From NCBI GenBank assembly GCA_020632265.1, contig JACKFW010000001.1, forward strand, positions 140,223 to 204,222: a stretch of DNA of 64,000 nucleotides. Reading direction: 5' to 3'. This stretch comes from Pseudomonadales bacterium (GTDB lineage: Bacteria > Patescibacteriota > Microgenomatia > UBA1400 > PJMF01). Below the pieces are notes generated by a model. That model had not been told where the DNA came from. It ran no database searches and saw only the letters and a program-made list of their open reading frames with translations. This document shows, one piece after another, positions 15,504 to 37,494 of this stretch (positions within the stretch are counted from its first letter, which is position 1; every line of letters starts with the position of its first letter). The position numbers were made by a program, and so were the translations under genes.

Positions 15504-16892
15504 TTAGTAATATTCAGAAAAAGAAATAATTAAATAGGAATTATTTTTTTCAAGAATTTTATTATCAATTAAATCTTCATTTAATCTATTTAAAAGTCCA
15601 TTATTAACAATAAATACTTCGTTTGATTTTTCTTTAATTTTTTCAACCATAGTGTGGTATGGTGCCTCAGATAAATTGAGAGTAATTATATTCTTCTTTG
15701 AATAATAAATAACTGTTGGGAAAAAAGTTTCCACAACATTAATGTTTTCATATTTTCCAGCCTTTATAGAAATATCCTTTTCATCCCCATAATTGTTGTG
15801 ATTTGTATAAATTAAATTAGAAAATTGTTTAAATTGAAAAAATGCCAAAAGAAAAAATAGAATTAAAAATAAATATTCAATCACTATAAATTTTATTGGT
15901 AGCAATTTTAATAAATAGTTTGGAAGTAAGCCAATAAGTAAGGAAACCGCTGGGTATAGAGGAATCAAATGCCATATTTCAGTTTTATCTGATATAAAAA
16001 ACATTGAAAAGCCTACAAGCCATAAAAATAATACTAGAATATTTTTTCTTTGTTTTTTATTAAAGATAAATGTTACGATCGAAATGATTCCAGAAGTCAA
16101 GAAAATTTTGTACCATTTACCTATACCAATTGCTAAATAATTTGAAGCACTGATAATAGAATCAAGGGCAAATGAATTAATCTCCCCCCTTGTACCAATA
16201 GTTATAAAGTGATGATTTAAAAAATTACTATTTAAATGTTGATTGTAAACAAACCAAGGTAATAAAATAATTAAAGCAATTGAAATAGTTTTTAAATAAA
16301 TTTTAAAAGAATATTTTCTATGATTGCTATAAATTAAAAACAATACAGCAGGCAAAATACCAATTCCAACCAAAGCTTTAATTAAGAAAGAGCACGCAAA
16401 ACTTATACTTCCAAAAAATAAATTTTTCTCACCCTTTTTCAAAAGAAAGTATATTGATAATATTTGAAAAAATACTAATGGAGCGTCAAGATTTCCAGAT
16501 CTCGCCCTAAACATAAACCACATACTAGAAAGCAATACTAATGATGCAATAATTCCAGTTATTTTATTGTTCATTTTTTTTCCAACCAAGTAAACTAAAA
16601 TAACACTTCCCATACCAAGTAGAGTTGAGAGAAAGCGCACTGAAAATTCATTACTTCCAAAAAAAATGGCAGGAATTGACATTAGAATAAATCCTAGTGG
16701 TGGATGATCAATAAATATTCCTCCGTTGTATATCAATTTCAACGGATTTTTAGTTATAACTAAATTGCGTGCAACATCACCATACCAGGCCTCATCATAA
16801 CTAAATAATGGAGCATCTGAAATTTTATAAAAAAAGATGGCAATAAGAATAATAGTGACTGAAATATTTAAAGGTTTCAATAAATTTTTCAT
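15504..16892 (-). CDS. GT-C fold membrane glycosyltransferase (GT39/GT83, PMT/ArnT-like)
   Basis: YDEAWYGD motif in the first loop (the PMT/ArnT DE motif). Polytopic. Confidence 0.65.
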   Translation of the reverse strand: MKNLLKPLNISVTIILIAIFFYKISDAPLFSYDEAWYGDVARNLVITKNPLKLIYNGGIFIDHPPLGFILMSIPAIFFGSNEFSVRFLSTLLGMGSVILVYLVGKKMNNKITGIIASLVLLSSMWFMFRARSGNLDAPLVFFQILSIYFLLKKGEKNLFFGSISFACSFLIKALVGIGILPAVLFLIYSNHRKYSFKIYLKTISIALIILLPWFVYNQHLNSNFLNHHFITIGTRGEINSFALDSIISASNYLAIGIGKWYKIFLTSGIISIVTFIFNKKQRKNILVLFLWLVGFSMFFISDKTEIWHLIPLYPAVSLLIGLLPNYLLKLLPIKFIVIEYLFLILFFLLAFFQFKQFSNLIYTNHNNYGDEKDISIKAGKYENINVVETFFPTVIYYSKKNIITLNLSEAPYHTMVEKIKEKSNEVFIVNNGLLNRLNEDLIDNKILEKNNSYLIISFSEYY

Positions 16893-17338: not shown

Positions 17339-18028
17339 ATGAAAATTAGCAAATACTTGAATAGAAATAAAGCCATTGAATATGCAAGAATGTCTTGGCC
17401 CGAACTTGGATATAACTCAAGTATGGAGCCTTTCTATAGTTGGGTTATAAATTTAATTAAAAAAATTAATAACCCAAAAGAAATAAATTCAATCGTAGAA
17501 ATTGGCTTTGGAGCAGGAAGAATTTTGTATGAGTTAAGTAAACAATTTCCAAACGTTAAAATTCAAGGGCTTGAATTTTCCAGTGACATGAAAAAAATAT
17601 CCGAACAAATTTTAATTTCTAAAGATATATTTGCAATAACTGAAGATCAAAAAATAATTGGAAAAAAACTTGAAAATATTAATTTAAAAGATGGAGTGGA
17701 TATACAAAACTTGAATGAAGTAAAATCTAACCAATTTGACCTAACAGTATGTATTAATGTTCTTGATAGAATAGTAAATCCTAAAAAAGCAACTAAAGAG
17801 TTACTAAGAATAACAAAAATAGAAGGATATTGTATCATTGTTAATGCTTTCGATTATGAAGAAAAAACTCCATTAAAAATGCAAATTGACCCAATATCAT
17901 TTGAGAACTTATTAAATGATCTTAATTTCAAAATATTAACTCAAAAGAAATCAAAACTAGTTAAATCACTGCCAAAAAAACCAATCAGAATATTCAATGA
18001 ATACGGTTACGTTTTACAAAAAAAATAA
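17339..18028 (+). CDS. class I SAM-dependent methyltransferase
   Basis: Motif I VEIGFGAGRIL. About 229 aa. Confidence 0.7.
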   Translation: MKISKYLNRNKAIEYARMSWPELGYNSSMEPFYSWVINLIKKINNPKEINSIVEIGFGAGRILYELSKQFPNVKIQGLEFSSDMKKISEQILISKDIFAITEDQKIIGKKLENINLKDGVDIQNLNEVKSNQFDLTVCINVLDRIVNPKKATKELLRITKIEGYCIIVNAFDYEEKTPLKMQIDPISFENLLNDLNFKILTQKKSKLVKSLPKKPIRIFNEYGYVLQKK

Positions 18029-23682: not shown

Positions 23683-24357
23683 ATGAAAAAAATTTTAATA
23701 GTCGAAAACGACAAAACCTTACTAAATACCATAGCAGATTTTTTCAAATCGAAAGGCTTTACTTGTGAAACTTGCTCAACTGTTCAAAAAGCTTGCGACT
23801 TAATTGAACAAAATGATTATGATTTGCTGATACTAGACAGAATCTTAGATGATGGTGACGGATTAGAAGTGGCCGAATTTCTTAATGATTTTAATTATAA
23901 AACAAGAATAATTATTCTTTCACAAAAGTCAAAAGTAGAAGAAAGAATTAATGGACTAGAAATTGGTGCTGATGACTATTTAGCAAAACCTTTTTCAATG
24001 TCGGAACTATTCTTACGAGTTAAAAATTTATTAGCAAAACAAAAGGTAAAAAACTCCAACTCACTTTCACTTGGAAAAGTTACCATTTTTCCAAAAACTG
24101 GCGAGGTGATACTCAAAGAAAGAAACCTTACAATGAGAAGAAAAGAAATTCAAATTCTTGCCTGCCTATTTAAACACAAAAATCACGTGGTAAGCCGAAA
24201 CATGATTATTGACGATGTTTGGACTGGAGGAATGGAAATTCCCACTCATACAACTTTAGATGTATATATAAGAAGAATTCGAATATTTTTAGGTAGTGAA
24301 AAAGCTTTGATCAAGACTGTAAGGGGTTTTGGTTATATGGCTTCGTTAGTGGAATAA
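23683..24357 (+). CDS. OmpR/PhoB-family two-component response regulator
   Basis: Receiver domain (DLLILD...KPF) and C-terminal winged-helix (VWTGG...TLDVYIRRIR). Confidence 0.9.
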   Translation: MKKILIVENDKTLLNTIADFFKSKGFTCETCSTVQKACDLIEQNDYDLLILDRILDDGDGLEVAEFLNDFNYKTRIIILSQKSKVEERINGLEIGADDYLAKPFSMSELFLRVKNLLAKQKVKNSNSLSLGKVTIFPKTGEVILKERNLTMRRKEIQILACLFKHKNHVVSRNMIIDDVWTGGMEIPTHTTLDVYIRRIRIFLGSEKALIKTVRGFGYMASLVE

Positions 24358-25075
24358 TCCAGGTAATATGAGTACCAAATCCAGGGCTACTTTGGATTGA
24401 CATTTTTCCAGAAAATATTTCTTCAATGGTTTTTTTAACAAAATGCAACCCAATTCCTTGACCATTTTTTCTAAAGCTCAAACCATCAATCAAAGCTAAT
24501 TTTTGAGTTATCAAATTCATGCCACAAGCAAAATCAACAAAATCAATTTTTAAATTATTATCTTCCTTTCTAACAATTAGGTTTATCGGCTTATGCAATT
24601 TATTTTTATATGCTTGAAAAGCATTATTTAAAATACAAGAAAGCGCTTCCTGAAAATATAACTTATTACCGATTAAATATATTTCATTATCACTGAAATA
24701 TTTGCAATCAATATTACAATTATTTATTCTTGGATTCCATAAACAAAACACTTCATTTATAGAATCCATAACACAAAATCTTTCATTTTTATTAACATCT
24801 CCAGAAACTGAATTTATAATTTTTGCTAATTTTTTTGCAGCTTCAAGAGAACTTTTTTGCTTTATATGAACATTCGATTCATCATCTAACGCAAATTCTA
24901 AGTTTGATAATAAAATTGTTAAAGGTGTTGAGCATGCATGGAAAAATATTTTACTCTTAACCAAAGAATACTTTGGAATTTGATTTTTCAGATTGATGAT
25001 ATTAAGTACTCCAATTAAAAAAATATTGTTATTAAAAATTACAACCTGAAAAAATTCTGCTACTTTTTTTAACAT
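24311..25075 (-). CDS. sensor histidine kinase without TM/sensor domain
   Basis: H-box HACSTPLT and HATPase G-boxes GQGIGLHFVK...GFGT. 254 aa. Its 3' end overlaps the regulator by 47 nt in convergent orientation. Confidence 0.7.
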   Translation of the reverse strand: MLKKVAEFFQVVIFNNNIFLIGVLNIINLKNQIPKYSLVKSKIFFHACSTPLTILLSNLEFALDDESNVHIKQKSSLEAAKKLAKIINSVSGDVNKNERFCVMDSINEVFCLWNPRINNCNIDCKYFSDNEIYLIGNKLYFQEALSCILNNAFQAYKNKLHKPINLIVRKEDNNLKIDFVDFACGMNLITQKLALIDGLSFRKNGQGIGLHFVKKTIEEIFSGKMSIQSSPGFGTHITWIIPLTKPYNQNPLQS

Positions 25076-25186: not shown

Positions 25187-26806
25187 TTATTTTATATAAG
25201 AATCAAAGTTTTCAGTGAGATCCCAAACTTGCAAACAAGGACCATCATAAGGCCTACAAAATTCAGCTATGAGATATTTACTGTTAATTTTAAGTAAGAG
25301 TCGGTGTGAATTAACTATTAGCCATTTTTTTTGATAGTTATTTGCTCTATCTGCAAAACTTTTTGGTAAAAACGAAACAGGTTGTCCTATACCCTCTAAA
25401 TAAAGATTATCTACATTTGTTCGATGTAAATACATTAATAAGCCATCAGGCAAAGTTCCAAAATATCCTTCAGTTGCAACCGCAAGCGTATTTTGTGTTG
25501 TTTCTTTCTCAATTAAATCAACAGTATCTTTAATCCCATGTCCAGAAGACCATTCAGTAAGATATTGAGTTATATCTGAAGAAACAAATGGTATTTTATT
25601 TGGTTCCAAGATTGAAAACTGAATGTAATTTGCACAAACAACAAATATATTTGCTAAAATCAAAGAAGTTGATACGCCAATCAATACTTTTTTCCAAAAC
25701 CTACTTTTCCCTTCAAATACATTATCCAAAAGACTTTCTAAACCCATTACAGCTGACAAGGTAAAAAAGAATGATGCTGGAAAAAGATATCTTGGATAGA
25801 CAGTTTTTCCCATTAAAGCTATGGGAAAAATAAATAATAGACCTGACCAAAACAACACATGAGAAATCAGTTGATTTTTTTTGGAAAACAAACCTATTAA
25901 TGCAAATATAATTATTCCAGGTGTTAAATAAATGTAAAAATAATATAAATAATTAGGAACATTCGAAACAGTGTAGAGCCATGACCCATTAAGCAAATCA
26001 GATATAGGAAACAGAAAATCTCCACCGCGACTAAATAATTGACCAAAAGTTGGATTAAGTTTTAATGAAAAGAACATAACTATGCCGATAGCAAGGCATA
26101 CAGAAACTTTTAAAAAACCTATGAATAATGTTTTAGTACTTTTATCCTTAGTTAGAAAGATGGATAAATATAAAGAAGGAATAAATAAAATTGCGGGAAT
26201 TTTTGTAAGAAGAGCCAGCCCAAAGAAGAATCCAGAAATTAAAATATTATTAACACTACTTTTGTCAAATACCGCTGAAACAATTGAAGTATTTTTTGTT
26301 AAAGTTAGTGATTTTTTTGAGTTAAAAACTTTAACTAAAAATAAATATGAAATTGAAATTAATAAAGCTAGTAAACCATCCATTAGGGCCATTTGATGAT
26401 GAAAATACCAGAAAGGTAAAACTATAGTGAAAATTCCCATCAATAATTGAGTTGATTTTTTTCCACCCAAACATTTTACAACATCCATATTTACAAAAAC
26501 CTGAATCAACCCCACTAAAACAGCTAAAAATCTTCCTGCAAACAATTGGTCTTTAAAAATATATTGAAAAGGAACTAATAACCAAATAAACAAGGGAGTC
26601 TTGCCGTCGTTCATTGAAAAAAACAGATACCTCTTCCAATCATCAATAATTAATTGAGCCCATCTAATATATATAGATTCATCCGCAAATACTGGTAACC
26701 TAGTTAAGGCGAATAAATGAATGAAAAAATATATAAGAATTAACCCTATGTATAAAGATATACTAAGTTTATTTTTTACAATAAATTTTTGTAATTTTTT
26801 AAGCAT
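25187..26806 (-). CDS. GT-C fold membrane glycosyltransferase (PMT/ArnT-like)
   Basis: FADESIYIRWAQ loop-1 DE motif. Polytopic. 539 aa. Confidence 0.6.
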   Translation of the reverse strand: MLKKLQKFIVKNKLSISLYIGLILIYFFIHLFALTRLPVFADESIYIRWAQLIIDDWKRYLFFSMNDGKTPLFIWLLVPFQYIFKDQLFAGRFLAVLVGLIQVFVNMDVVKCLGGKKSTQLLMGIFTIVLPFWYFHHQMALMDGLLALLISISYLFLVKVFNSKKSLTLTKNTSIVSAVFDKSSVNNILISGFFFGLALLTKIPAILFIPSLYLSIFLTKDKSTKTLFIGFLKVSVCLAIGIVMFFSLKLNPTFGQLFSRGGDFLFPISDLLNGSWLYTVSNVPNYLYYFYIYLTPGIIIFALIGLFSKKNQLISHVLFWSGLLFIFPIALMGKTVYPRYLFPASFFFTLSAVMGLESLLDNVFEGKSRFWKKVLIGVSTSLILANIFVVCANYIQFSILEPNKIPFVSSDITQYLTEWSSGHGIKDTVDLIEKETTQNTLAVATEGYFGTLPDGLLMYLHRTNVDNLYLEGIGQPVSFLPKSFADRANNYQKKWLIVNSHRLLLKINSKYLIAEFCRPYDGPCLQVWDLTENFDSYIK

Positions 26807-28124
26807 GATCTATTTTTGTCCATATTTTAGTCTTAATATTTGTAAATAGATATATTAATGGTATTATCCATACAATTAATGTTTGATTGGCAATAATTTT
26901 TGGACTATATTCCAAACCATTAAACAACCATGGCAAATATCTTAAACTTGAACTGACAGTAAATACTAAAAGTAAGTTGCGAAGTTTTTTCATTTTCATG
27001 AACGGCAACCAAACAAGCACCCAAATAAAATACCAAGGATAAAATTGATGCGATCTAGGAGTAAATAACAGAAGCATCATAATGGTAGCTGCTAAATCTG
27101 GAATATAAAAAATCCATTTATTAACAATTATGAAAAATATTTTATCTATGAAATTTTGATCAATATTTATTTTAAATCTGCGCTTCACGATTTTTGCAAG
27201 TCGATAATAAAAAAGATAAATTAATAAAACTAAAAACCAAATTGGCAACAAAGCTAGCGTCGCATATTTAATTGAAATAGAAATAGAAAGGAAAAGAATT
27301 GAAACCAAAAAATATTTAACTTTTAAATAATTGTCGCTTATTTGAGAAGTAATCGGCTTAATTAAGAAACTCAATCCATAAATTGCAAAAGGCATCATTA
27401 ATAAGTCATTGTGATAATTTGAAATATATTCTATTAAGAAAAATGGATTTAAAAACACCATTGCACTTTCGTAAAGGTTCATCCGTCTTTTAAATAATGT
27501 CATGGAAAAATTTTGCATTGAAAAATATAAAAGAATCATACATAAATAGCTCCAGACTCTAAAAGCAGCGAGAGTTAAAGAAAATTTGCCAAAACCTAAA
27601 TAATAGGGAATTAAAGTAAAGTAAGTCCATCCTCTTCCGTATACATCAGTGACATTGGTGTTATGCATAAATCTAATCCAAAGGTCATTGGGAAAATCAA
27701 GCGCTGTATAAAGTTTTGTGTCTACCCCATATTTTGCAATCATCCTGGCATAAAAAATATAATTAAAAACGTCGTGAGATAATGAATTATATGAAAATGC
27801 AATTGGAGCAATAATTACTAAAAAGATTAAAACATATTTATTAAAAAATATTTTTTTTAAATTTACCTTTTTTGATTTTAACTTTTTTAGTATATAAAAA
27901 TATAAAATAAATAATGAAATTATTAAGAAAAGATAAATATATCCTGTCAATATTGAGTTGTGAAAAAATGTTTTCCACATGAAGTTTTGAAATTTCCAAT
28001 AAATATCATTTGAAGTCAAAACCAAATTGGGATCCACCAAACTATATGAAAATATTGAATATATCAATAAAATTATAAAATACAAAATAAATACTGTCAT
28101 TAAAATCTTATTTATATTTACCAA
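26799..28124 (-). CDS. polytopic membrane protein, possible GT-C-like glycosyltransferase
   Basis: About 12 TM segments with no soluble domain. Sits inside the glycosylation cluster. Confidence 0.35.
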   Translation of the reverse strand: MVNINKILMTVFILYFIILLIYSIFSYSLVDPNLVLTSNDIYWKFQNFMWKTFFHNSILTGYIYLFLIISLFILYFYILKKLKSKKVNLKKIFFNKYVLIFLVIIAPIAFSYNSLSHDVFNYIFYARMIAKYGVDTKLYTALDFPNDLWIRFMHNTNVTDVYGRGWTYFTLIPYYLGFGKFSLTLAAFRVWSYLCMILLYFSMQNFSMTLFKRRMNLYESAMVFLNPFFLIEYISNYHNDLLMMPFAIYGLSFLIKPITSQISDNYLKVKYFLVSILFLSISISIKYATLALLPIWFLVLLIYLFYYRLAKIVKRRFKINIDQNFIDKIFFIIVNKWIFYIPDLAATIMMLLLFTPRSHQFYPWYFIWVLVWLPFMKMKKLRNLLLVFTVSSSLRYLPWLFNGLEYSPKIIANQTLIVWIIPLIYLFTNIKTKIWTKIDHA

Positions 28125-28872
28125 ATATATCCATCATCCTAATAATTAAAATATCACGAAACATTCTAAGAGAATCTTTGATTGGGCTTACCCTATTAGA
28201 TTCGTTGTGATTCCAAACAATTGGAACTTCCTTAATTTTGAAACTATTTTTTTTAGCTAAAAACAATAGTTCAACATCAAACGCACCTGTAAAAGCATCC
28301 TTTCTTACTTGATTACCACCATAAACATATAGTTGATTAAACAACTTTTCTGTGGCTTCACTAGAAAATAGTTTGAAACCACATTGAGTGTCGAGTATTC
28401 CAGGAATAGCTATCATTTGAACAATAATATTGAACCCTCTACCCATAACATGCCGATGAAATGGTTCTTTATCTCTGCGAGCACCTACAATTTCTCTTGA
28501 ACCAACAACAACATTAGCGCCATTTTTTGTATATTTGAATAATTTTTCAACTTCTTTAAGAGGTGTTGATTGATCAAAGTCAGTAAATAATCTCCATTCT
28601 CCTGTTGCCGCCAACATGCCTGCTTTTACCGTGGGAGCTTTGCCTGCGTGTTTGTTATGCAACACTTTTATTCTCTTATCTTTTTGTGCAAATATATCTA
28701 ATTGATAGGGCGTATCGTCAGTAGACCCATCATCAGACAAAATTAGTTCCCATTCATAATCTTGAACTTTTAAGTAATCCCAAACTTCATTTAAGACTTT
28801 CCTTTTGAAATTCTTTGCTTCATTGTAAGATGGAATTATGACTGATAAATATGGTTTCATGTGATTAATCAT
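28108..28872 (-). CDS. GT2 polyprenol-phosphate glycosyltransferase (DPM1/GtrB-like)
   Basis: LSVIIPSYNE, DDGSTDDT and DFDQS (DxD) motifs. Confidence 0.85.
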   Translation of the reverse strand: MINHMKPYLSVIIPSYNEAKNFKRKVLNEVWDYLKVQDYEWELILSDDGSTDDTPYQLDIFAQKDKRIKVLHNKHAGKAPTVKAGMLAATGEWRLFTDFDQSTPLKEVEKLFKYTKNGANVVVGSREIVGARRDKEPFHRHVMGRGFNIIVQMIAIPGILDTQCGFKLFSSEATEKLFNQLYVYGGNQVRKDAFTGAFDVELLFLAKKNSFKIKEVPIVWNHNESNRVSPIKDSLRMFRDILIIRMMDIFGKYK

Positions 28873-28903
28873 ACACTAATACTAAAGTTCAATAAAACAC
28901 TAA

Positions 28904-30448
28904 CTACTCTCTTCTCAATACTGTTATTTCTGGGCCATTTTCTACTTCATAGACCTCACTAGGGATTTTATTGGGGAAAACGACAATTTCATAAATTGGG
29001 GAATCAACAACATTTGTTAAAACTCTATCATCATTAATAATAAAGAGCGTATCGATATTGCCTCGATCTTCATCTACTACTGGTGGATTATTTGTTGCAC
29101 TCAAAAAATACCGATAATTTTGACCTTCAATGTCACCTGTTCCAGTCAGTAAAATAATATTATATTTTTCATTTTGCTTAACTCTACTGGTAATTGTATC
29201 CACGGCTCGCTGGATGTCTACAATTCTGCCTCCGGTGTCTGACATTACAATTTTCATTAAAGGTAGATTGTATTTTAAAAAGAAAAAAATAAATACTAAT
29301 ATAAGAAATTTTCCCAAAATTCCTTTTTTATATAAATAATCCCCAGTAATTCCTAATGTTAAAAAAGTAATTGGAAATAAATATGCTACGTAGTGATCAT
29401 AGATAGTATGTTGATAAAATCCAATTAAAAATATCCCAGAAAAAAGAAAAGTAAAAATAATATTTATTCCATACTTATATTTTTTCCGCTGATCAACTTT
29501 TAATTCTCTAAAATTTAAGAAAAGTAGTATTAAAATGATTGCTAAGAAAACCAAATTAATTTGATTATTCTGGCCAAGAGGAATATCAACTAAGATGTGT
29601 CTTGCTTCCTTTTGTGTATCTCGAACATATTCACTAAGCCTGCCTTTTAAATCAGTTGATGTTTGCTCAAAGCTATCTTCACCGACTAAAATATTCTGAA
29701 AAGCTTTAAAATTTAAAGCATCGTGTTTTAAATCAAATAGTACGAGTGGCAAAATCGAGGTAAAAAATATAACCGCTCCTACCGCTGTTGCAAAAAACAT
29801 TTTCTTCACCAATTTTTTGTCATTAAACCTAGAGATAAGTTGCCAGAGCCAAATTAATCCTATTCCAGCGCTTGATAATAAAGTTAGATAATGTAGTTGA
29901 ATCAATACGCTAAATAATAAAATTACTATTGCCCAATACTTCACGTCACTTTTTATTGCCTTAAATATGGCATAAATCATTAATAAAGATATCAATGGCG
30001 CTGGATTAGGATTCCAGCTAAACCTCGTAAATGAAACCACTATCGCTGAAAACGCCATTAATGTTGCAGCAAAAAGAGCTGCTCTTTCTCCCACCATTTC
30101 TTTACCTAAAACATACATTAAATAGATGGTCAATAATCCTAAGAAAGCCACGGCATAAACCGGACCAAGAGGACTTGGATAAGATAACATTAGAAAAGGA
30201 ACCATAAAATAATAATAGAGAGGCCCAAGATACATGTTGCCAACGCTAGTAACTGGACCAATAAAAACTAAGTCATGATTCTTAAATATCTTTGAAACAA
30301 TTAAAGCATCCCTACCTTGATCGCCAAGAAATTGCACTGAGTTGGGAATGTTCCAAAATCTTACGAATGTAGCCAATAGCAACACTAAAATAAATAAGTA
30401 ATGTCTTATTTCCATTTTTTTTGGAAATCCAGGAAAATTCATCTTCAT
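28904..30448 (-). CDS. GT-C fold membrane glycosyltransferase (GT39-like)
   Basis: Polytopic N-terminal region with an FLGDQGRDA loop, plus a C-terminal soluble domain. 514 aa. Confidence 0.55.
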   Translation of the reverse strand: MKMNFPGFPKKMEIRHYLFILVLLLATFVRFWNIPNSVQFLGDQGRDALIVSKIFKNHDLVFIGPVTSVGNMYLGPLYYYFMVPFLMLSYPSPLGPVYAVAFLGLLTIYLMYVLGKEMVGERAALFAATLMAFSAIVVSFTRFSWNPNPAPLISLLMIYAIFKAIKSDVKYWAIVILLFSVLIQLHYLTLLSSAGIGLIWLWQLISRFNDKKLVKKMFFATAVGAVIFFTSILPLVLFDLKHDALNFKAFQNILVGEDSFEQTSTDLKGRLSEYVRDTQKEARHILVDIPLGQNNQINLVFLAIILILLFLNFRELKVDQRKKYKYGINIIFTFLFSGIFLIGFYQHTIYDHYVAYLFPITFLTLGITGDYLYKKGILGKFLILVFIFFFLKYNLPLMKIVMSDTGGRIVDIQRAVDTITSRVKQNEKYNIILLTGTGDIEGQNYRYFLSATNNPPVVDEDRGNIDTLFIINDDRVLTNVVDSPIYEIVVFPNKIPSEVYEVENGPEITVLRRE

Positions 30449-30463
30449 AATCTTTTTCTTAAC

Positions 30464-31651
30464 CTAGTTTTTCTTTTTCCAAATAAATTTGTTATATGCA
30501 AAGAAATTCCAAAACAAACCAATAACAATTCCAGACATAGCGAAAACAATACCTGTATCAACATTAAAGTTTATAAATGGTAAAACAAATAATGATTTTA
30601 AGCCTATGAAAGTTTCGCCTAATGAATTGATAGTTAATTGAATCAAAATTGATCCAGCAGAAGCTAAATTAAATTGCAAAAACTTTGTAGGGATTTGAGA
30701 TTTTTTTAATTTTCTATCAGAAAATGTCCATAAATTATTAAGTGCAAAATTAGACATAATTGCTAATTCAATACTCAATAAAGTCGCAACCAAAAAATTA
30801 GTAAAAACCAATAATTGAAAGGTGGGAAGTAAGTTTCTGATAATTGAAAGTGAAACTAGTTGAACAAAAGTACCAACCCCTCCCACAAAAGCAAACTTAA
30901 AAATTCTACTATTAAGCATATCTTTAATCCTTACTTTTAAAATATATAATAAAGTGTTTTTAATATATTCAGCACCCAATTTAGATTCACCAATAGTTCT
31001 ATCTACAAAAACAAAAGGAACTTCCTTGATTTTAAAACCAGCTCTTACAGCGTTGTTCAAAAATCCAATTTGAAATGTGTAACCCATAAATCTTTCATCA
31101 TTGATTAGTGGACGCACTTTGTCGTAAACTTTTTTTCTAACTGCACGAAAGCCGGTCGTCCAATCTTTAATTTTAAAATTTGTAAGAACAGTAGTAATTA
31201 CTAAATTACCAACAATACTTAAAAACTTTCTATCCAAACCCCAATTGGCAGGAATACCTCCACCTTTTATATACCTCGAACCTAAAACTAGATCTGCTCC
31301 GTTATCAATTTCCTTCATAAATTCGGGTATTTTTGTATAATCATGTGAAAGATCAGCATCAAACTGAAAAATAACCTCAGATTTTAACTCACCAAACGCA
31401 TATTCCATACCTTTAAGATATGCTCCACCTAAGCCCGCCTTTTTAGAATTTACAAGCAAATGTACTTCTTTATGTAGTTTGGTCAATTCTTGTACCTCCT
31501 CATATGTTTTGTCTGGAGAAGTGTCGTCGACAACCAATATTCCCATTTCCCAGTTTTTCACTTTTTTAAAAATTTCAAGTAAAAGAGGAATAACTTTTTG
31601 AATATTTTCTCGTTCATTATAGGTTGGGATTATGACAATTGCTTTTTGCAT
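30464..31651 (-). CDS. GT2 polyprenol-phosphate glycosyltransferase fused to a GtrA-like membrane domain
   Basis: VIIPTYNERENI, DDTSPDKT and DADLSHD motifs. C-terminal FKFAFVGGVGTFVQL is GtrA-like. Confidence 0.8.
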   Translation of the reverse strand: MQKAIVIIPTYNERENIQKVIPLLLEIFKKVKNWEMGILVVDDTSPDKTYEEVQELTKLHKEVHLLVNSKKAGLGGAYLKGMEYAFGELKSEVIFQFDADLSHDYTKIPEFMKEIDNGADLVLGSRYIKGGGIPANWGLDRKFLSIVGNLVITTVLTNFKIKDWTTGFRAVRKKVYDKVRPLINDERFMGYTFQIGFLNNAVRAGFKIKEVPFVFVDRTIGESKLGAEYIKNTLLYILKVRIKDMLNSRIFKFAFVGGVGTFVQLVSLSIIRNLLPTFQLLVFTNFLVATLLSIELAIMSNFALNNLWTFSDRKLKKSQIPTKFLQFNLASAGSILIQLTINSLGETFIGLKSLFVLPFINFNVDTGIVFAMSGIVIGLFWNFFAYNKFIWKKKN

Positions 31652-32620
31652 TTACTTGCTTTCAATTTCAATTTCTGCCTCTACCATTAATTTTACTAAT
31701 TCCTCAAAACTAATTGATGGTTTCCATCCAAGTTTTTGATTAGCCTTAGTTGGATCACCAATTAATAAATCAACTTCAGCGGGACGATCAAATTCGGGAT
31801 TATGTTTCCATACGGATTTCCAATCTTCAATGCCGGCATATTTGCAACTAAGTTGTAAAAATTCTTCAACTGAATGAGTTTCACCTGTGGCAACTACAAA
31901 ATCTTCAGGTTCATCTTGTTGAAGCATTAGCCACATGGCTTCAACATAATCTTTAGCATATCCCCAATCTCGCATTGAGTTTAAATTTCCAAGTTCAACA
32001 TTTTCTTGCTTGCCTAACTTAATTCTAGCAACTGCATTGGCAATTTTTCTGGTAACAAACTCCAGCCCTCTTCTTGGAGATTCATGATTAAATAAAATCC
32101 CTGAAGTTGCAAACATATCAAATGATTCTCTGTAATTAACAGTGATCCAATGACCATAGACTTTAGCAACACCATAAGGAGATCTTGGATAAAATGGAGT
32201 CGATTCTTTTTGCGGAACTTCTTGAACTTTTCCAAACATCTCACTTGAGCTTGCCTGATAAAATTTAGCGCTTGGACATGCTAATCTTAATGCTTCCAAA
32301 ACTCTAACGACTCCTAACGCTGTAAACTCGCCGGTTAAGACTGGTTGATCCCAACTGGCTTTAACAAATGATTGTGCTGCCAAATTATAAACTTCATCTG
32401 GTTGAACATCTTTCAAAGCATAAGTTAAAGAATGCTGATCAATTAAATCTCCTGAAATCAATTTCAGGTTATCATTGTGAATAATATGCTGAATGCGTGC
32501 AAAATTTTGAGTGCTTGTTCTTCTTGTAAGGCCATAAACCTTGTAGCCTTTTTCCAAAAGAAATTCGGCTAAATAAGATCCATCCTGTCCAGTAATACCT
32601 GTAATAAATGCTTTTTTCAT
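31652..32620 (-). CDS. gmd: GDP-mannose 4,6-dehydratase
   Basis: N-terminal [23 protein letters not shown] is nearly the canonical GMD signature. SDR YxxxK present. Confidence 0.9.
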
Positions 32621-32653
32621 AAAAATTTCTCCAGTGATATTTATTTAAACCTC

Positions 32654-33613
32654 TTAATTATTTTTATTACGAATTGAATCTATTATTCTAGCCAAAGAGT
32701 CATCGAGAGATATAGTTGGAGTCCAACCTAATGATTTAATTTTATCATTTTTTGCTACCATTTTAGGAATATCAAGCGGTCTTATTCTAGAAGGATCTTC
32801 TTCTATATCAATTTTTACGATTGATAAAGAAGCCAGCTTCTTGACAACTTCACTCATTTTAATACCAACCCCACTGCCAATGTTATAAACTTCTCCAGTT
32901 TCACCTTTATTCATTACAATAATATATGCAAGCATCATGTCTTTAACATCTGTGAAATCTCTAATTGCAGATAAATTTCCAACTCTTAATTTATCTTGAG
33001 AGCCATTTTCAATTGCAACAATTTGAGTTGCAAATGCTGGTATAGCAAAATCCGGCGACTGTCTTTCACCAATATGGTTAAATGGCCTAACAGTCACTAT
33101 GTCTAGATTAAAAGATATGTGATATGAATAAGCCAACATGTCTTGAGCAATTTTTGAAACTGCATAAGGATTAATGGGTCTTAATTTATGATCTTCATCG
33201 CAAGGAAGTTCATCTTCACTTTTACTTACTCCATACTCTTCAGCTGAACCAACAACTAGCAATCTTGCTTTAGGTACGAAATCTTTTACAGCTTTTAGTA
33301 AATTCAATTGCAAAGTAATATTGTTGGCAAGTAATTCATCTGCTTTTTCAAAACTTTTACCCACGTATGCAAACGAAGCCAAATGATAAATTTGATCTGG
33401 AACTAATTCTTTTAATAAAATATTTGTATTTTCGGCATTTGTTAAATCTAGTTGATGAATATTTGCTTTACCAATTAAATTGGCTAAATATTCAGACCCA
33501 CCACCAAAAGATGTTGTGTGAATGTTTTCGAAGCCTTTAGATTGAAGTGCTTCAACTAAATGTGATCCTGCAAAACCAGTTCCGCCAGTAATTAGTATTT
33601 TTGGTTGATCCAT
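32654..33613 (-). CDS. SDR-family NAD(P)-dependent epimerase/reductase, likely GDP-4-keto-6-deoxy-D-mannose reductase (Rmd)-like
   Basis: ILITGGTGFAGSHL Rossmann motif, YAVSK (YxxxK), and a position adjacent to gmd. Confidence 0.65.
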   Translation of the reverse strand: MDQPKILITGGTGFAGSHLVEALQSKGFENIHTTSFGGGSEYLANLIGKANIHQLDLTNAENTNILLKELVPDQIYHLASFAYVGKSFEKADELLANNITLQLNLLKAVKDFVPKARLLVVGSAEEYGVSKSEDELPCDEDHKLRPINPYAVSKIAQDMLAYSYHISFNLDIVTVRPFNHIGERQSPDFAIPAFATQIVAIENGSQDKLRVGNLSAIRDFTDVKDMMLAYIIVMNKGETGEVYNIGSGVGIKMSEVVKKLASLSIVKIDIEEDPSRIRPLDIPKMVAKNDKIKSLGWTPTISLDDSLARIIDSIRNKNN

Positions 33614-33631
33614 AATGTCCTTAAAAATTAA

Positions 33632-34945
33632 TTATCTCCCAACTCCTAAATACTTAAATCCCCAATTGGAAATCAGTTGAGGTGAAAATTGGTTTCTAGC
33701 ATCAATAAACCACTGAGACTTTTGTTCTTTTCTTACTTTGGAATAATCAAAGTTCAATATTTCAGGCCACTCGATTAGAGCAATAATTACATCTATTTCT
33801 TGACATGCTTCTTCAACTGACCCAACATATGAAACACTTGGATCTTCCTTTATAAAATATTTAACTAATTCTAATGATTTGGGATCGAAACCTCTAACTT
33901 GAGCTCCTTCATTTAATAAATGAGGAATAACTTTAGTGCTTGGTGCTTCTCTCATATCATCAGTGTTTGGTTTAAATGCTAATCCCAAAACGGCTACATT
34001 TTTTCCTTGAAAACCTCCAATTTTTCTTGAGTAATTATCTAATAATTTTTTAATTCTATTTTCATTAATTTCACTAATCTTATTAAACAAATTTCCATCT
34101 TCTCCAATTTTTCTTGAATAATGAGCAAGCTCTTTTACATCCTTTGGAAAACACGAACCACCATAACCAAATCCTGGATACCAATAATGCTTGCCAATTC
34201 TTTTATCAAGCCCAATTGCTTTAATTACCTCTTGGATATCAGCCCCATTTTTTTCGCATAAATCGGCAATTTGATTAATAAAAGTAATCCTTGTAGCCAA
34301 ATATGCATTATTGCTATATTTTGCCATTTGAGCAGATTCAGGAGATACTTTAATAATAATTGTATTAAATGGTTTATGTAATTCCTCCAAAACTTTGAAG
34401 GCATAATCATCTTTAACCCCAATGACAATTCTATCTGGATTCGTGGTGTCATAAACCGCCGTACCTTCCTTTAAAAACTCAGGCACCGATGCAGTGAAAT
34501 ATTTCGTTTGAGTCAATTTGGTAATTCTTGCTTCAACTTCACCCAATGTTCCCGGAGGAACTGTTGATTTTACAACTACCACAGCATTTTCATTTAAATA
34601 TGGAGCTAAAGACTCACTAGAAGCAAATACGTATTTCAAATCGGCATTTCCATCTTCAGATGACGGTGTTCCTACAGCAATAATAATCACATCAGAACCT
34701 GTAATTGCATCCTGATATGAAGTTGTAAAGGTCAGATTTCCATTTCTTTGAGCTGTTTGCAATAATTCTTCTAATTGTGGTTCAAAAAAAGGAACTCTGC
34801 TAGATTTTAAGGACTCGATTTTTTTTTCATCTACATCTAGACCCACCACCTCATGTCCAAAAGATGCATAAACTGCAGCAGATACAACTCCAACGAAACC
34901 TGTGCCAATAACTGTAATTTTCATAATTTGATTTTCTTTAAACAC
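33632..34945 (-). CDS. ugd: nucleotide-sugar 6-dehydrogenase (UDP-glucose/GDP-mannose dehydrogenase family)
   Basis: MKITVIGTGFVGVV NAD-binding motif and catalytic GGSCFPKD. Confidence 0.85.
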   Translation of the reverse strand: MFKENQIMKITVIGTGFVGVVSAAVYASFGHEVVGLDVDEKKIESLKSSRVPFFEPQLEELLQTAQRNGNLTFTTSYQDAITGSDVIIIAVGTPSSEDGNADLKYVFASSESLAPYLNENAVVVVKSTVPPGTLGEVEARITKLTQTKYFTASVPEFLKEGTAVYDTTNPDRIVIGVKDDYAFKVLEELHKPFNTIIIKVSPESAQMAKYSNNAYLATRITFINQIADLCEKNGADIQEVIKAIGLDKRIGKHYWYPGFGYGGSCFPKDVKELAHYSRKIGEDGNLFNKISEINENRIKKLLDNYSRKIGGFQGKNVAVLGLAFKPNTDDMREAPSTKVIPHLLNEGAQVRGFDPKSLELVKYFIKEDPSVSYVGSVEEACQEIDVIIALIEWPEILNFDYSKVRKEQKSQWFIDARNQFSPQLISNWGFKYLGVGR

Positions 34946-35013: not shown

Positions 35014-36024
35014 TCAGCTTTTTTGCACAATTTGTTCTGGAGTTAACCAGATGTAATTATTAAAAACCCAATCTATTAATTGCGATGTTTCTTGATATCT
35101 ATTCTCACTTCCCATAAGAATTATTAAAATATTTCTGTTATCTCGATTAAATTGAGTTATTAGCACTTCGCTAGCACCCTCAGTTGTACCTGTTTTAATT
35201 CCCACAACAGAATCATCAACGCCTAAAAGTAGATGAGTGTTGTATAAATAATGTTTATGAATTCCGGATATATCAGTAATAATATCTTCTTTAATTCCCA
35301 CAATGCTTCTTAAAAATTCATCCTTCATAAGCTCCTTGCTCATAACTGCTAAATCGTGTGCAGAGCTTCTTTGATGTTCGGCATCAAAACCCGCAGGATT
35401 TTCAAAAAATGTATTTTTTAACCCAAAATCTACAGCTTTTTTGTTCATTAAATCAACATATGCGTCATATCCGTCTGAATAATTTAGCGCCAAGATATAA
35501 GCCGCATCATTATTTGACTGAATTAATGCAGCTTTTAGCAAATTAGAAACAGTAACTTTTTCACCTTTGTAAAATCCAACGTCAATTCCTTCAATTTGAG
35601 AGATATCTGGAACTTCAAGAACTTGATCTAAACTATATACCTCAAGAGCTACTAAGGCAGTCATAATTTTTGTTGTAGATGCGGGAAGCAAAAGTCTCTC
35701 AGAATTTTTCTCAAATAGTTGGGTTGCTGTGTCAATATCTTCAATATAAACTGCTTTAGCACTCAATTGATCAATTTGAAAATCATTTTCAGTAACTGGG
35801 GCTAAATTGCTCTCTTCTCCAGGAGACAAATCACTTTGAGATTCAATTTCAGCAGTATTGAGAACGGGTATTTCAACTATATCTCTTGAATAAACATCAA
35901 ATTTCTTTACCGTATCATTTTTGGCAAAAATAATATAGTCAGTGGCTTTATAAAGAAACATTGTGATTATTAATATCACAATACTTATAATCTGATATTT
36001 TTTATTTACTAAAACTTTCTTCAT
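35014..36024 (-). CDS. dacA: D-alanyl-D-alanine carboxypeptidase (PBP5/6-like serine peptidase)
   Basis: STTK (SxxK), SNN (SxN) and KTGT (KTG) active-site triad. N-terminal signal/TM. Confidence 0.8.
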   Translation of the reverse strand: MKKVLVNKKYQIISIVILIITMFLYKATDYIIFAKNDTVKKFDVYSRDIVEIPVLNTAEIESQSDLSPGEESNLAPVTENDFQIDQLSAKAVYIEDIDTATQLFEKNSERLLLPASTTKIMTALVALEVYSLDQVLEVPDISQIEGIDVGFYKGEKVTVSNLLKAALIQSNNDAAYILALNYSDGYDAYVDLMNKKAVDFGLKNTFFENPAGFDAEHQRSSAHDLAVMSKELMKDEFLRSIVGIKEDIITDISGIHKHYLYNTHLLLGVDDSVVGIKTGTTEGASEVLITQFNRDNRNILIILMGSENRYQETSQLIDWVFNNYIWLTPEQIVQKS

Positions 36025-36072: not shown

Positions 36073-37494
36073 CTATTTCTTTCTTTCAATGACTCTAAGA
36101 CTTAATTCATCTAGCTGAGCTTGAGACACCTGAGCAGGTGCATCCATTACCGCAGTTTTCCCAGATGAAGTCATAGGAAAAGCAATTACTTCTTTAATTG
36201 ATGTTTCTCCTGCTAAAATCATAACCAAGCGATCAAGACCCAGAGCAATACCACCATGAGGTGGAGTACCAACTTCAAAAGCTTCTAACATATGACCTAT
36301 ACTAGAATTGATCTGATCATCAGAATAACCCATTATTTTAAAAGTTGCTCTCAAAACCTCTGGCCTATGTGCTCTTATGCTTCCACCACCAGCTTCGTAT
36401 CCATTGCAGACTAAATCATATTGAGCAGTTACAATTTTATCAATGTTTTTTCCCTTTAAATGCCATTCTAAATGCTCTTCCAACGGTGTGCTGAAAGGAT
36501 TATGTGTAAACGTCCAACCGCTTTTTCCATCTTGAACTTCTGCTTGGTCATCTTTATCAACTTTTTTGAAAAAAGGAAATTTTACAACCCAGGCAAAAGC
36601 TAAAGTTCCATTGGTTTTTTCTTCTTCAGTTCTAAGATCAAATTTGTCTGCGCCAAATTGTTGAATTGCTTGATCATAGGTAAAAACTGGAAATTTTTCA
36701 TCTTTAATTTTTCCACCCACAGCTTTGACTGCATATTTGGTCATATCCTCAACTATGCTCATTACTTCATCTTGAGTCACGAAGCTTGTTTCTATATCCA
36801 ACTGAGTAAACTCAAAACCTCGATCAGATCTTAAATCCTCATCTCTAATACATTTTGCAACTTGAAAATAATTCTCTACACCAGCCGTCATTAAAAGCTG
36901 TTTATATTGTTGTGGACTCTGTGGCAAAGCATAAAATTTTCCAGCTTGAAAACGAGAAGGAACAATAAAATCTCGAGCTCCCTCTTTTGTAGCCAAAGAT
37001 AATAAGGGAGTCTCAACTTCAATAAATTCTTTTTCAAATAAATACTCCCTAAAACTTTGGATTAACTTAGATCTTAATATGAGATTTTTTCTCATTCTGT
37101 TGCGTCTCAAATCAAGATATCGGAATTTTAATCTAACTTCCTCTTTAACATCATAGGCATCACCCTCAACTTGAATTGGTAACTCTTTTGATGGATTTAA
37201 GATTTGGTATTCGCTAACCTCCATCTCCACCACACCCGTTTCAATCTCTTTATTGATCATTTTTTCAGGTCTATCTTTGATCGTACCAAATACAGATATA
37301 ACCGACTCCGTAGTCAAATCACCCATCATTTTAAAACCAACACATTGAATTGTTCCAGAACGATCTCTTAAATCAATAAAAGTTATTTTTCCATGGTCTC
37401 TTTTGGTTTCAACCCAACCTTTTAATAAAACTTTTTTACCAGAAAGTTTTGGTGTTTCTTTAACTAAAGTTCTTTTTATTGTTATTTCTGACAT
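36073..37494 (-). CDS. aspS: aspartyl-tRNA synthetase, bacterial-type core without the GAD insertion domain
   Basis: QSPQQYKQLLMTAGVENYFQVAKCIRDEDLRSDRGFEFTQLDIETSF nearly matches the E. coli AspRS motif 2 region. Only 473 aa. Confidence 0.9.
   Translation of the reverse strand: MSEITIKRTLVKETPKLSGKKVLLKGWVETKRDHGKITFIDLRDRSGTIQCVGFKMMGDLTTESVISVFGTIKDRPEKMINKEIETGVVEMEVSEYQILNPSKELPIQVEGDAYDVKEEVRLKFRYLDLRRNRMRKNLILRSKLIQSFREYLFEKEFIEVETPLLSLATKEGARDFIVPSRFQAGKFYALPQSPQQYKQLLMTAGVENYFQVAKCIRDEDLRSDRGFEFTQLDIETSFVTQDEVMSIVEDMTKYAVKAVGGKIKDEKFPVFTYDQAIQQFGADKFDLRTEEEKTNGTLAFAWVVKFPFFKKVDKDDQAEVQDGKSGWTFTHNPFSTPLEEHLEWHLKGKNIDKIVTAQYDLVCNGYEAGGGSIRAHRPEVLRATFKIMGYSDDQINSSIGHMLEAFEVGTPPHGGIALGLDRLVMILAGETSIKEVIAFPMTSSGKTAVMDAPAQVSQAQLDELSLRVIERKK

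Follow-up and report, generated by a model that had tools for sequence, protein, structure and literature searches.

Eight genes, lettered H-G-F-E-D-C-B-A in reading order (Table 1), combine sugar-nucleotide enzymes with membrane glycosyltransferases and raise the question which envelope molecule they decorate and with which sugars. They occupy positions 25187-34945 on the minus strand of the window, i.e., the whole 64-kb stretch of DNA analyzed, which comes from a genome placed in Patescibacteria by the source names of its homologues in databases. The preliminary description of a co-oriented, tightly packed cluster with overlaps is borne out: all eight open reading frames were confirmed, with intergenic gaps (in order from H to A) of 18, 33, 0, 15, 31, -17, and -8 nt, an operon-like packing that includes two gene overlaps. 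The eight genes are a real operon, in which three GT-C transferases of unrelated families and two GT2 synthases are found in a single unit. Literature searches retrieved no paper on this operon.

Table 1. Features of the locus and its surroundings, with positions in the window
Gene	Predicted product	Position	Strand	Basis or remark
H	Nucleotide-sugar 6-dehydrogenase, UDP-glucose dehydrogenase-like (Ugd)	33632..34945	-	UDPG_MGDP_dh domains, TIGR03026
G	Rmd-like reductase	32654..33613	-	Rmd structures as best solved relatives
[quoted passage not shown]
E	Polyprenol-phosphate sugar synthase, GT2 fused to a four-helix GtrA/DPMS membrane domain	30464..31651	-	PF00535, PF04138, 5mlz
D	GT-C fold transferase, uncharacterized family, conserved C-terminal extracytoplasmic domain	28904..30448	-	PMT_2, predicted structure
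C	Second DPM1-like GT2, 254 aa	28108..28872	-	PF00535, 5mlz
B	MptA/MptB-family GT-C, about 11-13 helices	26799..28124	-	PF26314 in homologues
A	PMT-like (GT39-type) GT-C, conserved C-terminal outside domain	25187..26806	-	PMT_2, DE motif
X	Separate ArnT/PMT-like GT-C	15504..16892	-	PMT_2 2.7e-21, PMT 1e-11
	Minimal histidine kinase	24311..25075	-	HATPase_c 2.4e-8; directly downstream of A
	OmpR-type response regulator	23683..24357	+	Response_reg 2.6e-24, Trans_reg_C 3.6e-18
	D-Ala-D-Ala carboxypeptidase (Dac)	35014..36024	-	Peptidase_S11 4.3e-42; 68 nt upstream of H

Enzymes for nucleotide sugars and lipid-linked sugars

The first three genes encode the nucleotide-sugar 6-dehydrogenase, the Rmd-like reductase, and the GDP-mannose 4,6-dehydratase that had been named in the preliminary description. 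H contains three UDPG_MGDP_dh Pfam domains (7e-61, 1e-34, and 8e-29), reaches 434 bits on TIGR03026 (cutoff 190), and is nearer to UDP-glucose dehydrogenase (best solved relative 4a7p, 3.4e-100) than to GDP-mannose dehydrogenase (1mfz, 5e-64). Its true start is likely the ATG at 34924, giving the N-terminus MKITVIGTG. G has a YxxxK motif and, as its best solved relatives, two Rmd structures (2pk3, 2.7e-61; 6x3b, 3.4e-42); on the Fcl model it reaches only 82 bits (cutoff 500). F exceeds the TIGR01472 cutoff (441.7 versus 415 bits), matches PF16363 at 2.9e-136, and is 77-90% identical to its orthologues at related loci. F and G resemble the GDP-D-rhamnose pathway of the Aneurinibacillus thermoaerophilus S-layer glycan and the Pseudomonas aeruginosa common polysaccharide antigen, since F passes the Gmd equivalog cutoff and the Rmd enzymes of these two species are the two best solved relatives of G. 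To our knowledge, the consumers in the known GDP-D-rhamnose systems are cytoplasmic GT-B transferases, whereas the only nucleotide-sugar transferases encoded in H-A are DPM1-like GT2 enzymes.

These two enzymes, E and C, correspond to the predicted DPM1/GtrB-like pair with a single GtrA fusion. E joins a Glycos_transf_2 domain (PF00535, 9.5e-27) to a GtrA_DPMS_TM domain (PF04138, 7.3e-15) and aligns over residues 3-351 with the type-III dolichyl-phosphate mannose synthase of Pyrococcus furiosus (PfDPMS, 5mlz; 4.9e-41), likewise a single chain, of which the catalytic, interface, and four-helix transmembrane parts all align. E retains the DXD motif of PfDPMS and the His after it, but DADLQH (PMC5526996) is changed to D98-A-D100-L-S-H, with Ser in place of the metal-binding Gln. 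By the strict definition of its authors, type III is confined to hyperthermophilic archaea (papers cited for this system: PMC5526996, PMC12992685), whereas E is bacterial and directly follows Gmd and Rmd. The transmembrane domain of PfDPMS, an enzyme similar to E, has been observed with flipped Dol-P-Man bound (PMC12992685). C has no transmembrane segment, matches PF00535 at 6.8e-26, carries D98-F-D100 as DXD motif, and also has 5mlz as best solved match (1.6e-15). For both proteins the top NCBIfam name is PgfS, at 62-72 bits where the cutoff is 500.

GT-C transferases of three unrelated families

Where three or four GT-C transferases had been proposed, the cluster contains exactly three (D, B, and A), and profile comparison detected no relationship between their families. 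All three have conserved acidic residues just past the first helix (D43/D47 in D, D31 in B, and D42/E43 in A). The DE motif ascribed to the GT-C enzymes holds for A, where D42-E43 is invariant across 31 sequences, and for X outside the cluster (D32-E33), but not for D and B. D instead has the invariant motif G-D43-Q-G-R-D47, along with invariant R142, H186, and D239, and B has D31 (at least 90% conserved) and H117-D118.

D passes PMT_2 weakly (32.6 bits, cutoff 26.1) and found no match in a sequence search of the PDB. Its predicted structure (pLDDT 86.8) resembles STT3, ArnT, AglB, PglB, ALG12, and PMT structures, with STT3 (8e-7) and ArnT (1e-6, TM 0.58) as top Foldseek matches, and we propose that D may represent a new ArnT/STT3-like GT-C family. 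For B, two starts keep the conserved first helix, a long TTG start at 28124 and an ATG nine codons downstream. B had no match in our local Pfam copy; precomputed PF26314 (MptA_B_family) annotations are present in 120 of 120 B homologues among the matches listed. Among 33 members of the B family, 11 match MptA (TIGR03459, best 2e-15) and six match MptB (NF038066, best 7e-10), while the B of the window reaches 14.7 bits on MptB against a cutoff of 40. The predicted structure of B (pLDDT 90.3) gives weak GT-C fold matches (best E 0.16 versus solved structures). A is also a weak pass on PMT_2 (31.9 bits, cutoff 26.1); most of its homologues carry PF02366 (PMT) and PF13231, and it has no match to the NCBIfam Pmt equivalog. 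A natural B+A fusion protein occurs on two contigs (P0385, P0500). The additional transferase X, announced as a fifth GT-C at 15.5 kb, is indeed a GT-C enzyme (1e-6 to 5ezm) but the fourth of the window, because the cluster has exactly three. It is absent from the 10-kb flanks of the related loci and lies outside the conserved unit.

Conservation and genomic neighborhood

We compared 80 related loci from Patescibacteria, which have ultra-small genomes, with D identities of 38-63%. The order H-G-F-E-D-C-B-A is kept in most of them despite two different flanks. Among the loci whose contigs extend far enough to judge, D is accompanied by C in 77 of 78, B in 71 of 73, E in 66 of 72, gmd and rmd in 64 of 70 each, ugd in 59 of 65, and A in 57 of 64, so the genes are retained together as one unit, and the lack of conservation named earlier as a refuting outcome is not seen. 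The histidine kinase gene 3' of A is a conserved neighbor in many related loci, and the response regulator gene, convergent with it and overlapping it by 47 nt, is one in most.

The upstream flank is RecJ-AspS-Dac in 21 of the 80 loci (order AspS-Dac-H), with Dac adjoining H only within the sub-clade of the window, and LCP-RmlB-RmlD in 38. About half of the related loci thus have an LCP wall-polymer ligase, RmlB, and RmlD beside the block, and several have a Wzx flippase and a YfhO-like GT-C as well. In these 38, the genes for Ugd, Rmd, and Gmd are preceded, at a distance of a few kb at most, by RmlB and RmlD, forming a loose sugar-supply block, and in locus L062 an unrelated gene, TrmD, intervenes. 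The D family is found beside an LCP ligase in four independent arrangements: LCP-RmlB-RmlD...H..A (e.g., L062), an LCP gene directly 5' of D-C-B-A with genes for a YfhO-like GT-C, Wzx, and three GT2 enzymes after A (L032, L065, and L079), and those of L006 and L039. We should note that the 64 kb of the window contain no LCP, Wzx, RmlB, or RmlD gene, so the link to wall polymers comes from the relatives.

Proposed mechanism and alternative readings

The reading that we favor, at somewhat better than even confidence, is loading of sugars onto a lipid carrier followed by their addition to a wall polymer outside the cell by three unrelated GT-C enzymes. In the cytoplasm, Gmd and Rmd would turn GDP-mannose into GDP-D-rhamnose (or its 4-epimer GDP-6-deoxy-D-talose), and Ugd would provide UDP-glucuronate. 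E and C would each move a sugar from a nucleotide sugar to polyprenol phosphate at the inner membrane face, and the fused four-helix domain of E could help move the lipid-linked sugar across to the outer side. There, D (ArnT/STT3-like), B (MptA/B-like), and A (PMT-like) would pass sugars from lipid donors to an envelope acceptor, with B possibly extending chains and B and A presumably working together. Homology backs each step of the logic proposed earlier, from nucleotide sugar over polyprenol-phosphate sugar and flipping to GT-C transfer outside. The carried sugar may be D-rhamnose, mannose, or glucuronate; one observation, the co-location of the genes, suggests that the 6-deoxyhexose and the uronic acid travel on the lipid carrier. 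LCP enzymes join wall glycopolymers to peptidoglycan, and as acceptor we consider a secondary wall glycopolymer linked to peptidoglycan the most likely. Between the protein and the surface polymer first offered as acceptors, the LCP, Rml, and Wzx linkage in relatives thus favors the polymer. Against this stand the shared ancestry that partly accounts for the LCP adjacency, and the membership of A in the PMT-like group, whose characterized members glycosylate proteins.

Sets of GT2, flippase, and GT-C are an established Gram-positive route for decorating wall polymers outside the membrane (PMC8035078). The three-component systems CsbB/GtcA/YfhO, GtlA/GtlB, GacI/J/K/L, and lactococcal CsdAB/CD/EF with CflA (PMC8035078) share with H-A a GT2 for polyprenol-phosphate sugar, a GtrA-type module, and a GT-C with an extracytoplasmic acidic motif, and are matched by the wall-polysaccharide linkage in relatives. 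H-A differs in its fixed operon of three unrelated GT-C and two synthases, the fusion of the GtrA-type module to a synthase, the built-in GDP-6-deoxyhexose pathway and Ugd, and its patescibacterial host, and no cluster protein reaches an equivalog score for any characterized member.

It is possible, although we doubt it, that the same transmembrane system carries ordinary lipid-linked sugars (mannose, glucose), and that Gmd, Rmd, and Ugd adjoin it only because the sugar-supply genes of one polymer are grouped. The supply block shared with RmlB/RmlD in many loci may serve cytoplasmic transferases, with genes elsewhere, instead of E and C; in L011 the cluster is present but has no Ugd nearby, and literature searches yielded no polyprenol-phosphate-rhamnose donor. 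However, L032, L065, and L079 have lost E along with Ugd, Rmd, and Gmd while D-C-B-A remain, which ties E to the sugar-supply genes, and the block has no other transferase able to use GDP-D-rhamnose. Protein O-glycosylation, with E making polyprenol-phosphate-mannose or -6-deoxyhexose, A adding the first sugar at Ser/Thr residues of membrane or secreted proteins, and B and D extending or branching, is unlikely in our view. Its models are actinobacterial Ppm1/Pmt and streptococcal Pgf and GtrB/PgtC2, and it draws on the invariant DE motif of A, the PMT/PMT_2 matches of most A homologues, the similarity of E to Dol-P-Man synthase, and the name PgfS for E and C. The Pgf operon (PgfS, PgfM1, PgfE, PgfM2) likewise combines a GT2, two GT-C genes, and a sugar-modifying enzyme, and streptococcal LCP, PBP, and PrsA carry O-glycans from GT2 and GT-C pathways (PMC12041528), so LCP or Dac neighbors could be targets instead of partners and the LCP adjacency is compatible with protein acceptors. 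Yet the PgfS scores are far below cutoff, the GT-C families differ from those of Pgf, A lacks a Pmt equivalog match, no Ser/Thr-rich tract was found in window ORFs of at least 100 aa, Dac, or the neighboring LCP proteins, and the recurrent linkage to Wzx, RmlB/RmlD, GT2, and the YfhO-like gene resembles a polysaccharide locus.

Still less probable is a lipomannan-like, membrane-anchored lipoglycan built wholly outside the membrane, with E as Ppm1, B extending the mannan, A and D priming or branching, and D-rhamnose, without a 6-OH, capping a 1,6-linked chain. The DPMS-like E, PMT-like A, and MptA/B-family B parallel the actinobacterial polyprenol-phosphomannose toolkit of Ppm1, Pmt, and MptA/MptB (PMC3485146, PMC2440535, PMC2157549). 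Unlike there, the B of the window stays below the MptB cutoff, A has no Pmt match, no PimA/PimB/PimE-type or inositol-lipid genes occur among the window ORFs scanned, and H-A adds Gmd, Rmd, Ugd, a second GT2, and the D family; a 6-deoxy sugar is unable to accept a 1,6 linkage, and the LCP linkage suggests a wall-attached polymer. A locus for ArnT-type modification of lipid A or LPS is effectively refuted. Some public records of D and A homologues are named '4-amino-4-deoxy-L-arabinose transferase-like' and D has ArnT as one of its best fold matches, but the equivalog cutoffs are far off (X, 41.7 versus 567 for ArnT; E and C, 42-46 versus 529 for ArnC), A and D do not match the ArnT model, and the Pfam/NCBIfam scan of window ORFs, which covered about 43 of the 63 with 100 aa or more, gave no ArnA, ArnB, or ArnD. 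The lineage argues in the same direction: Patescibacteria are, as far as we know, held to be without an outer membrane and LPS.

We consider the mechanism itself not new; the locus is most likely a variant within the transmembrane glycosylation systems already known.

Organization and conservation of the gene cluster

The region between positions 25187 and 34945 contains eight open reading frames (genes H, G, F, E, D, C, B, and A) arranged head to tail on the minus strand. Successive gaps from H to A measure 18, 33, 0, 15, 31, -17, and -8 nt, in agreement with the co-oriented, tightly packed cluster of the preliminary description. Promoter-like sites between 23 and 38 kb were at shuffle level (76 versus 73 in the shuffled sequence), and most terminator-like matches in the same region lie inside genes.

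Predicted products of the cluster genes and of the separate gene X, with their positions in the window
Gene	Predicted product	Position	Strand	Supporting match
H	Nucleotide-sugar 6-dehydrogenase (Ugd-like)	33632-34945	minus	Above TIGR03026 cutoff
G	SDR, Rmd-like	32654-33613	minus	Top solved relatives Rmd 2pk3, 6x3b
[quoted passage not shown]
E	GT2 + GtrA_DPMS_TM fusion	30464-31651	minus	PF00535, 9.5e-27; PF04138, 7.3e-15
D	GT-C	28904-30448	minus	Weak pass on PMT_2; structure model
C	Second DPM1-like GT2, no membrane segment	28108-28872	minus	PF00535, 6.8e-26; 5mlz, 1.6e-15
B	MptA/B-family GT-C	26799-28124	minus	Precomputed PF26314 match
A	PMT-like GT-C	25187-26806	minus	PF13231, 31.9 bits (cutoff 26.1)
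X	ArnT/PMT-like GT-C	15504-16892		

The window has a G+C content of about 31% and the gene content of a small-genome bacterium, with tRNA synthetases, SecDF, RRF, and RecJ and few metabolic genes. The named sources of homologues of the cluster proteins are Patescibacteria, Pacebacteria, Woesebacteria or Microgenomates. A contig of 1,082,363 bp, probably a complete genome, carries a protein identical to that of gene A; with a probable genome size of about 1.08 Mb, the operon takes up about 0.9% of it. Public records tag many related small-genome, CPR-like contigs as ‘uncultured Pseudomonadales,’ ‘Vitreimonas sp.’ or ‘TM6’ (loci L004, L005, L008, L013, L062, and others, as well as protein P0241), including the record with the exact window protein. 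These labels look like wrong taxonomy assignments. Elsewhere in the window, two adjacent radical-SAM genes (55784-58440), the second with weak similarity to DesII-like and viperin-like enzymes, lie in a stretch of 41% G+C versus about 31% elsewhere, and this stretch may be acquired DNA. The aspartyl-tRNA synthetase (36073-37494) is only 473 aa long, aligns to the bacterial model of 590 positions in two segments, and seems to be without the usual insertion domain.

An alignment of D homologues served to scan one genome per GTDB species, and the D family was found in 282 species-level genomes. The best 80 loci from these genomes were taken with 10-kb flanks, and the window proteins were mapped onto them by tblastn. 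The order H-G-F-E-D-C-B-A is kept in most of the 80 loci at a D identity of only 38-63%, so that the proposed unit withstood the comparison. Among loci with enough contig to judge, D has as neighbors C (77/78), B (71/73), E (66/72), gmd (64/70), rmd (64/70), ugd (59/65), and A (57/64). The upstream flanks vary by sub-clade, with RecJ-AspS-Dac in 21 loci (the relatives of the window) and LCP-RmlB-RmlD in 38 others; since the flanks differ between sub-clades, the core is conserved beyond background synteny. The retained gene order, together with the occurrence of D in 282 species-level genomes, implies strong selection.

Downstream of A, most loci encode a small histidine kinase together with an OmpR-type regulator, and the pair may therefore regulate or sense the envelope system. 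The corresponding window genes (23683-25075) are convergent, the kinase on the minus and the response regulator on the plus strand, and their 3′ ends overlap by 47 nt. The kinase beside A is minimal, with 254 aa, a single N-terminal hydrophobic stretch and no sensor domain.

Nucleotide-sugar and lipid-sugar genes

The first three genes encode putative nucleotide-sugar enzymes. The dehydratase F and the 6-dehydrogenase H of the preliminary description score above their family cutoffs, and H is nearer to UDP-glucose dehydrogenase (4a7p, 3.4e-100) than to GDP-mannose dehydrogenase (1mfz, 5e-64). The reductase G had been described as Rmd-like, and Rmd rather than Fcl is borne out: both top solved relatives are GDP-6-deoxy-D-lyxo-4-hexulose reductases (2pk3, 2.7e-61; 6x3b, 3.4e-42), while G reaches 82 bits on the GDP-fucose synthase (Fcl) model with a cutoff of 500. 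The predicted product of G may be GDP-D-rhamnose or its 4-epimer GDP-6-deoxy-D-talose, which sequence alone does not separate. Genes gmd and rmd have also been noted as phage-borne auxiliary genes for Patescibacteria (PMC12911398).

Both claimed DPM1/GtrB-like GT2 proteins were recovered, E being the one fused to a GtrA-like domain. Residues 3-351 of E align with the Pyrococcus furiosus Dol-P-Man synthase (PfDPMS; 5mlz, 4.9e-41) and residues 252-391 match GtrA_DPMS_TM. Based on the 5mlz alignment, the ‘GtrA-like flippase domain’ of E is a four-helix membrane domain in a type-III DPMS architecture, where, as in PfDPMS, a single chain combines a GT2 domain, interface helices and four GtrA-like transmembrane helices. 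The metal-site motif reads DADLSH in E and DADLQH in PfDPMS (PMC5526996), and the authors of the strict PfDPMS motif set found it only in archaea (PMC12992685). A 2026 study presents crystallographic data suggesting that the four-helix domain of PfDPMS may flip the product; E carries such a GtrA-type membrane module for movement of lipid-linked sugars, with a putative role in flipping (PMC12992685). Both E and C contain a DXD motif and can be placed among the predicted polyprenol-phosphate sugar synthases of the DPM1/GtrB/CsbB type. We also considered the PfDPMS sugar contacts as a guide to a 6-deoxy donor and discarded them: Arg117, near mannose O6, also positions the lipid phosphate, so this contact cannot discriminate such a donor.

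By family-level homology, Gmd and Rmd would yield GDP-D-rhamnose and Ugd would yield UDP-GlcA. E and C would then place sugars on polyprenol phosphate, an assignment at the same family level in which the sugar of each synthase is presumed; the transmembrane domain of E may assist product flipping, and D, B, and A would carry out sugar transfer outside the membrane. Three variant loci (L032, L065, and L079) retain D-C-B-A and are missing the sugar-supply genes and E, and this joint loss of E with H, G, and F ties E weakly to the GDP-sugar supply. Since E is DPMS-like and directly follows Gmd and Rmd, and since the unit holds no other possible GDP-D-rhamnose consumer besides the GT2 synthases, a lipid-linked D-rhamnose is reasonable but unproven. 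In the literature we found no report of a polyprenol-phosphate-rhamnose donor.

GT-C transferases of the cluster

The preliminary description listed three or four GT-C transferases with a DE motif. Three GT-C genes (D, B, and A) are indeed present, but within the cluster the DE motif occurs in A alone. The gene at 15.5 kb, X, was rightly described as a GT-C and is ArnT/PMT-like; it is, however, the fourth rather than the fifth of the window and no part of the unit. X adjoins a SAM methyltransferase gene (17339-18028) and a gene for a 618-aa protein with a weak radical-SAM match (18032-19888). Paralogy among the three cluster GT-C proteins was rejected by profile comparison, which detected no mutual relationship between their families; the PMT_2 core is common to D and X alone. 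Searches of A, B, D, and their profiles against the PDB by sequence gave no meaningful match.

For D, where even the profile search left the PDB without a match, a structure model (pLDDT 86.8) matches STT3, ArnT (TM 0.58), AglB, PglB, ALG12, and PMT structures with E-values from 1e-6 to 1e-4. As a GT-C, D belongs to a family in which no member has been characterized. For A, PF02366 (PMT) is also precomputed on most homologues, and the acidic pair D42-E43, just past the first helix in the first outside loop, does not vary among 31 aligned sequences.

B is a distant relative of MptA/MptB and not an orthologue. PF26314 (MptA_B_family) is precomputed on window B and all 120 homologues listed, while none of 33 family members matched in the local Pfam copy. 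Against NCBIfam, 11 of the 33 match MptA TIGR03459 (best 2e-15) and six match MptB NF038066 (best 7e-10); window B itself reaches 14.7 bits on NF038066, under the cutoff of 40. The B model (pLDDT 90.3) matches solved GT-C folds weakly, and residue D31 is conserved. Among the 150 strongest matches of the B-family profile in a library of 1.84 billion proteins we found close relatives only and no bridge to MptB. The same search yielded natural B+A fusions of 938 and 952 aa on two related metagenome contigs (proteins P0385 and P0500), with an A part 44% identical to window A. A shared substrate of B and A is therefore probable. If B kept the 1,6 regiochemistry of MptA/B, it would need an acceptor hexose that has a 6-OH, and any 6-deoxy sugar would be limited to capping or branching the chain.

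Putative acceptor and biological significance

The neighbors of the cluster in related loci point toward the cell wall. LCP (LytR-CpsA-Psr) enzymes join wall glycopolymers to peptidoglycan. In locus L062 the genes upstream of H encode a Wzx-type flippase, an LCP ligase, an RmlB-like dehydratase, and RmlD. The three variant loci that keep D-C-B-A have LCP directly before these genes and a YfhO/PTPS-like GT-C, a Wzx flippase and three GT2 genes after them, and two more arrangements (L006, L039) again place D beside LCP, Wzx, RmlB, and a YfhO-like gene. None of LCP, Wzx, RmlB or RmlD is found in the 64-kb window, although 38 of the 80 related loci have these genes alongside the cluster. Sets of GT2, flippase, and GT-C are the established Gram-positive route for decorating wall polymers outside the membrane (PMC8035078). 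Mainly from these neighbors and the known Gram-positive sets, a wall polymer is preferred as acceptor; the context in the 38 loci only hints at a single-sugar transfer from the lipid-linked donor to a polymer of the wall or to a protein on the outer side of the membrane.

Two side observations concern the same gene families. L006 encodes D followed by a second D paralogue at 27% identity (10001-13100), within an LCP/YfhO-like/Wzx/GT2 locus without E, C, B, and A. In the window, a short, 238-aa RmlA-like glucose-1-phosphate thymidylyltransferase (49727-50443) scores 312 bits, just under the cutoff of 360, and overlaps by 4 nt a downstream 307-aa open reading frame (48807-49730) without a family match.

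Protein O-glycosylation is a possible alternative to wall-polymer decoration, given that A is PMT-like and that in streptococci GT2/GT-C pathways glycosylate the LCP, PBP, and PrsA proteins themselves (PMC12041528). However, A has no match at E ≤ 0.01 in NCBIfam, including the bacterial Pmt equivalog NF058602 (cutoff 800 bits), and E and C, at 71.8 and 61.8 bits, score far under the cutoff of 500 of the PgfS equivalog (Streptococcus mutans Pgf). Ser/Thr-rich tracts are also absent from the window ORFs and the neighboring LCP and Dac proteins. The trio E, A, and B would suit a lipoglycan resembling lipomannan, but no PIM-type gene turned up among the window ORFs scanned. The ArnC/ArnT route to lipid A (LPS) was rejected: X scores 41.7 against an ArnT cutoff of 567, A and D have no ArnT match, and E and C reach 42.1 and 46.5 bits with an ArnC cutoff of 529. 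Pfam and NCBIfam scans of about 43 of the 63 window ORFs of at least 100 aa revealed no ArnA, ArnB or ArnD for an Ara4N donor.

In its most far-reaching form, the proposal holds that the operon makes polyprenol-phospho-D-rhamnose through the type-III-DPMS-like E, which would both make and flip it, and that the three unrelated GT-C proteins, of which two can be fused, build a Microgenomates-specific wall glycopolymer or lipoglycan outside the membrane; we regard this full version as rather unlikely. Multi-component transmembrane glycosylation systems likewise combine a GT2 synthase, a GtrA- or Wzx-type module, and a GT-C whose outside loop bears acidic residues. Systems of this kind are already known, and function is assigned here at annotation level, with no new mechanism shown. 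The literature on the candidate phyla radiation yielded nothing specific on this cluster. In the literature searched, the combination of three unrelated GT-C proteins, two synthases (one of type-III DPMS architecture), and a built-in GDP-6-deoxyhexose/UDP-GlcA supply is undescribed, and so is the constant gene order within a Patescibacteria clade.

Patescibacteria are very abundant and nearly all uncultured, and to our knowledge their envelopes are essentially without chemical characterization. Their presumed way of life is attachment to other cells, which makes their surface glycans prime candidates for host recognition and for phage receptors. The cluster adds a concrete, testable parts list: a pair of predicted lipid-sugar synthases, members of three GT-C families, and enzymes dedicated to supplying a GDP-6-deoxyhexose. 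Should D-rhamnose not ride on a lipid carrier, the cluster would still be a well-conserved but conventional wall-decoration system. If it does, bacterial glycobiology would gain a new donor type, and polyprenol-phospho-D-rhamnose would imply a lipomannan-like assembly logic beyond Actinobacteria and a lineage-defining envelope structure of episymbiont-like cells. For the candidate phyla radiation, the cluster offers a solid and testable starting point for work on surface chemistry.
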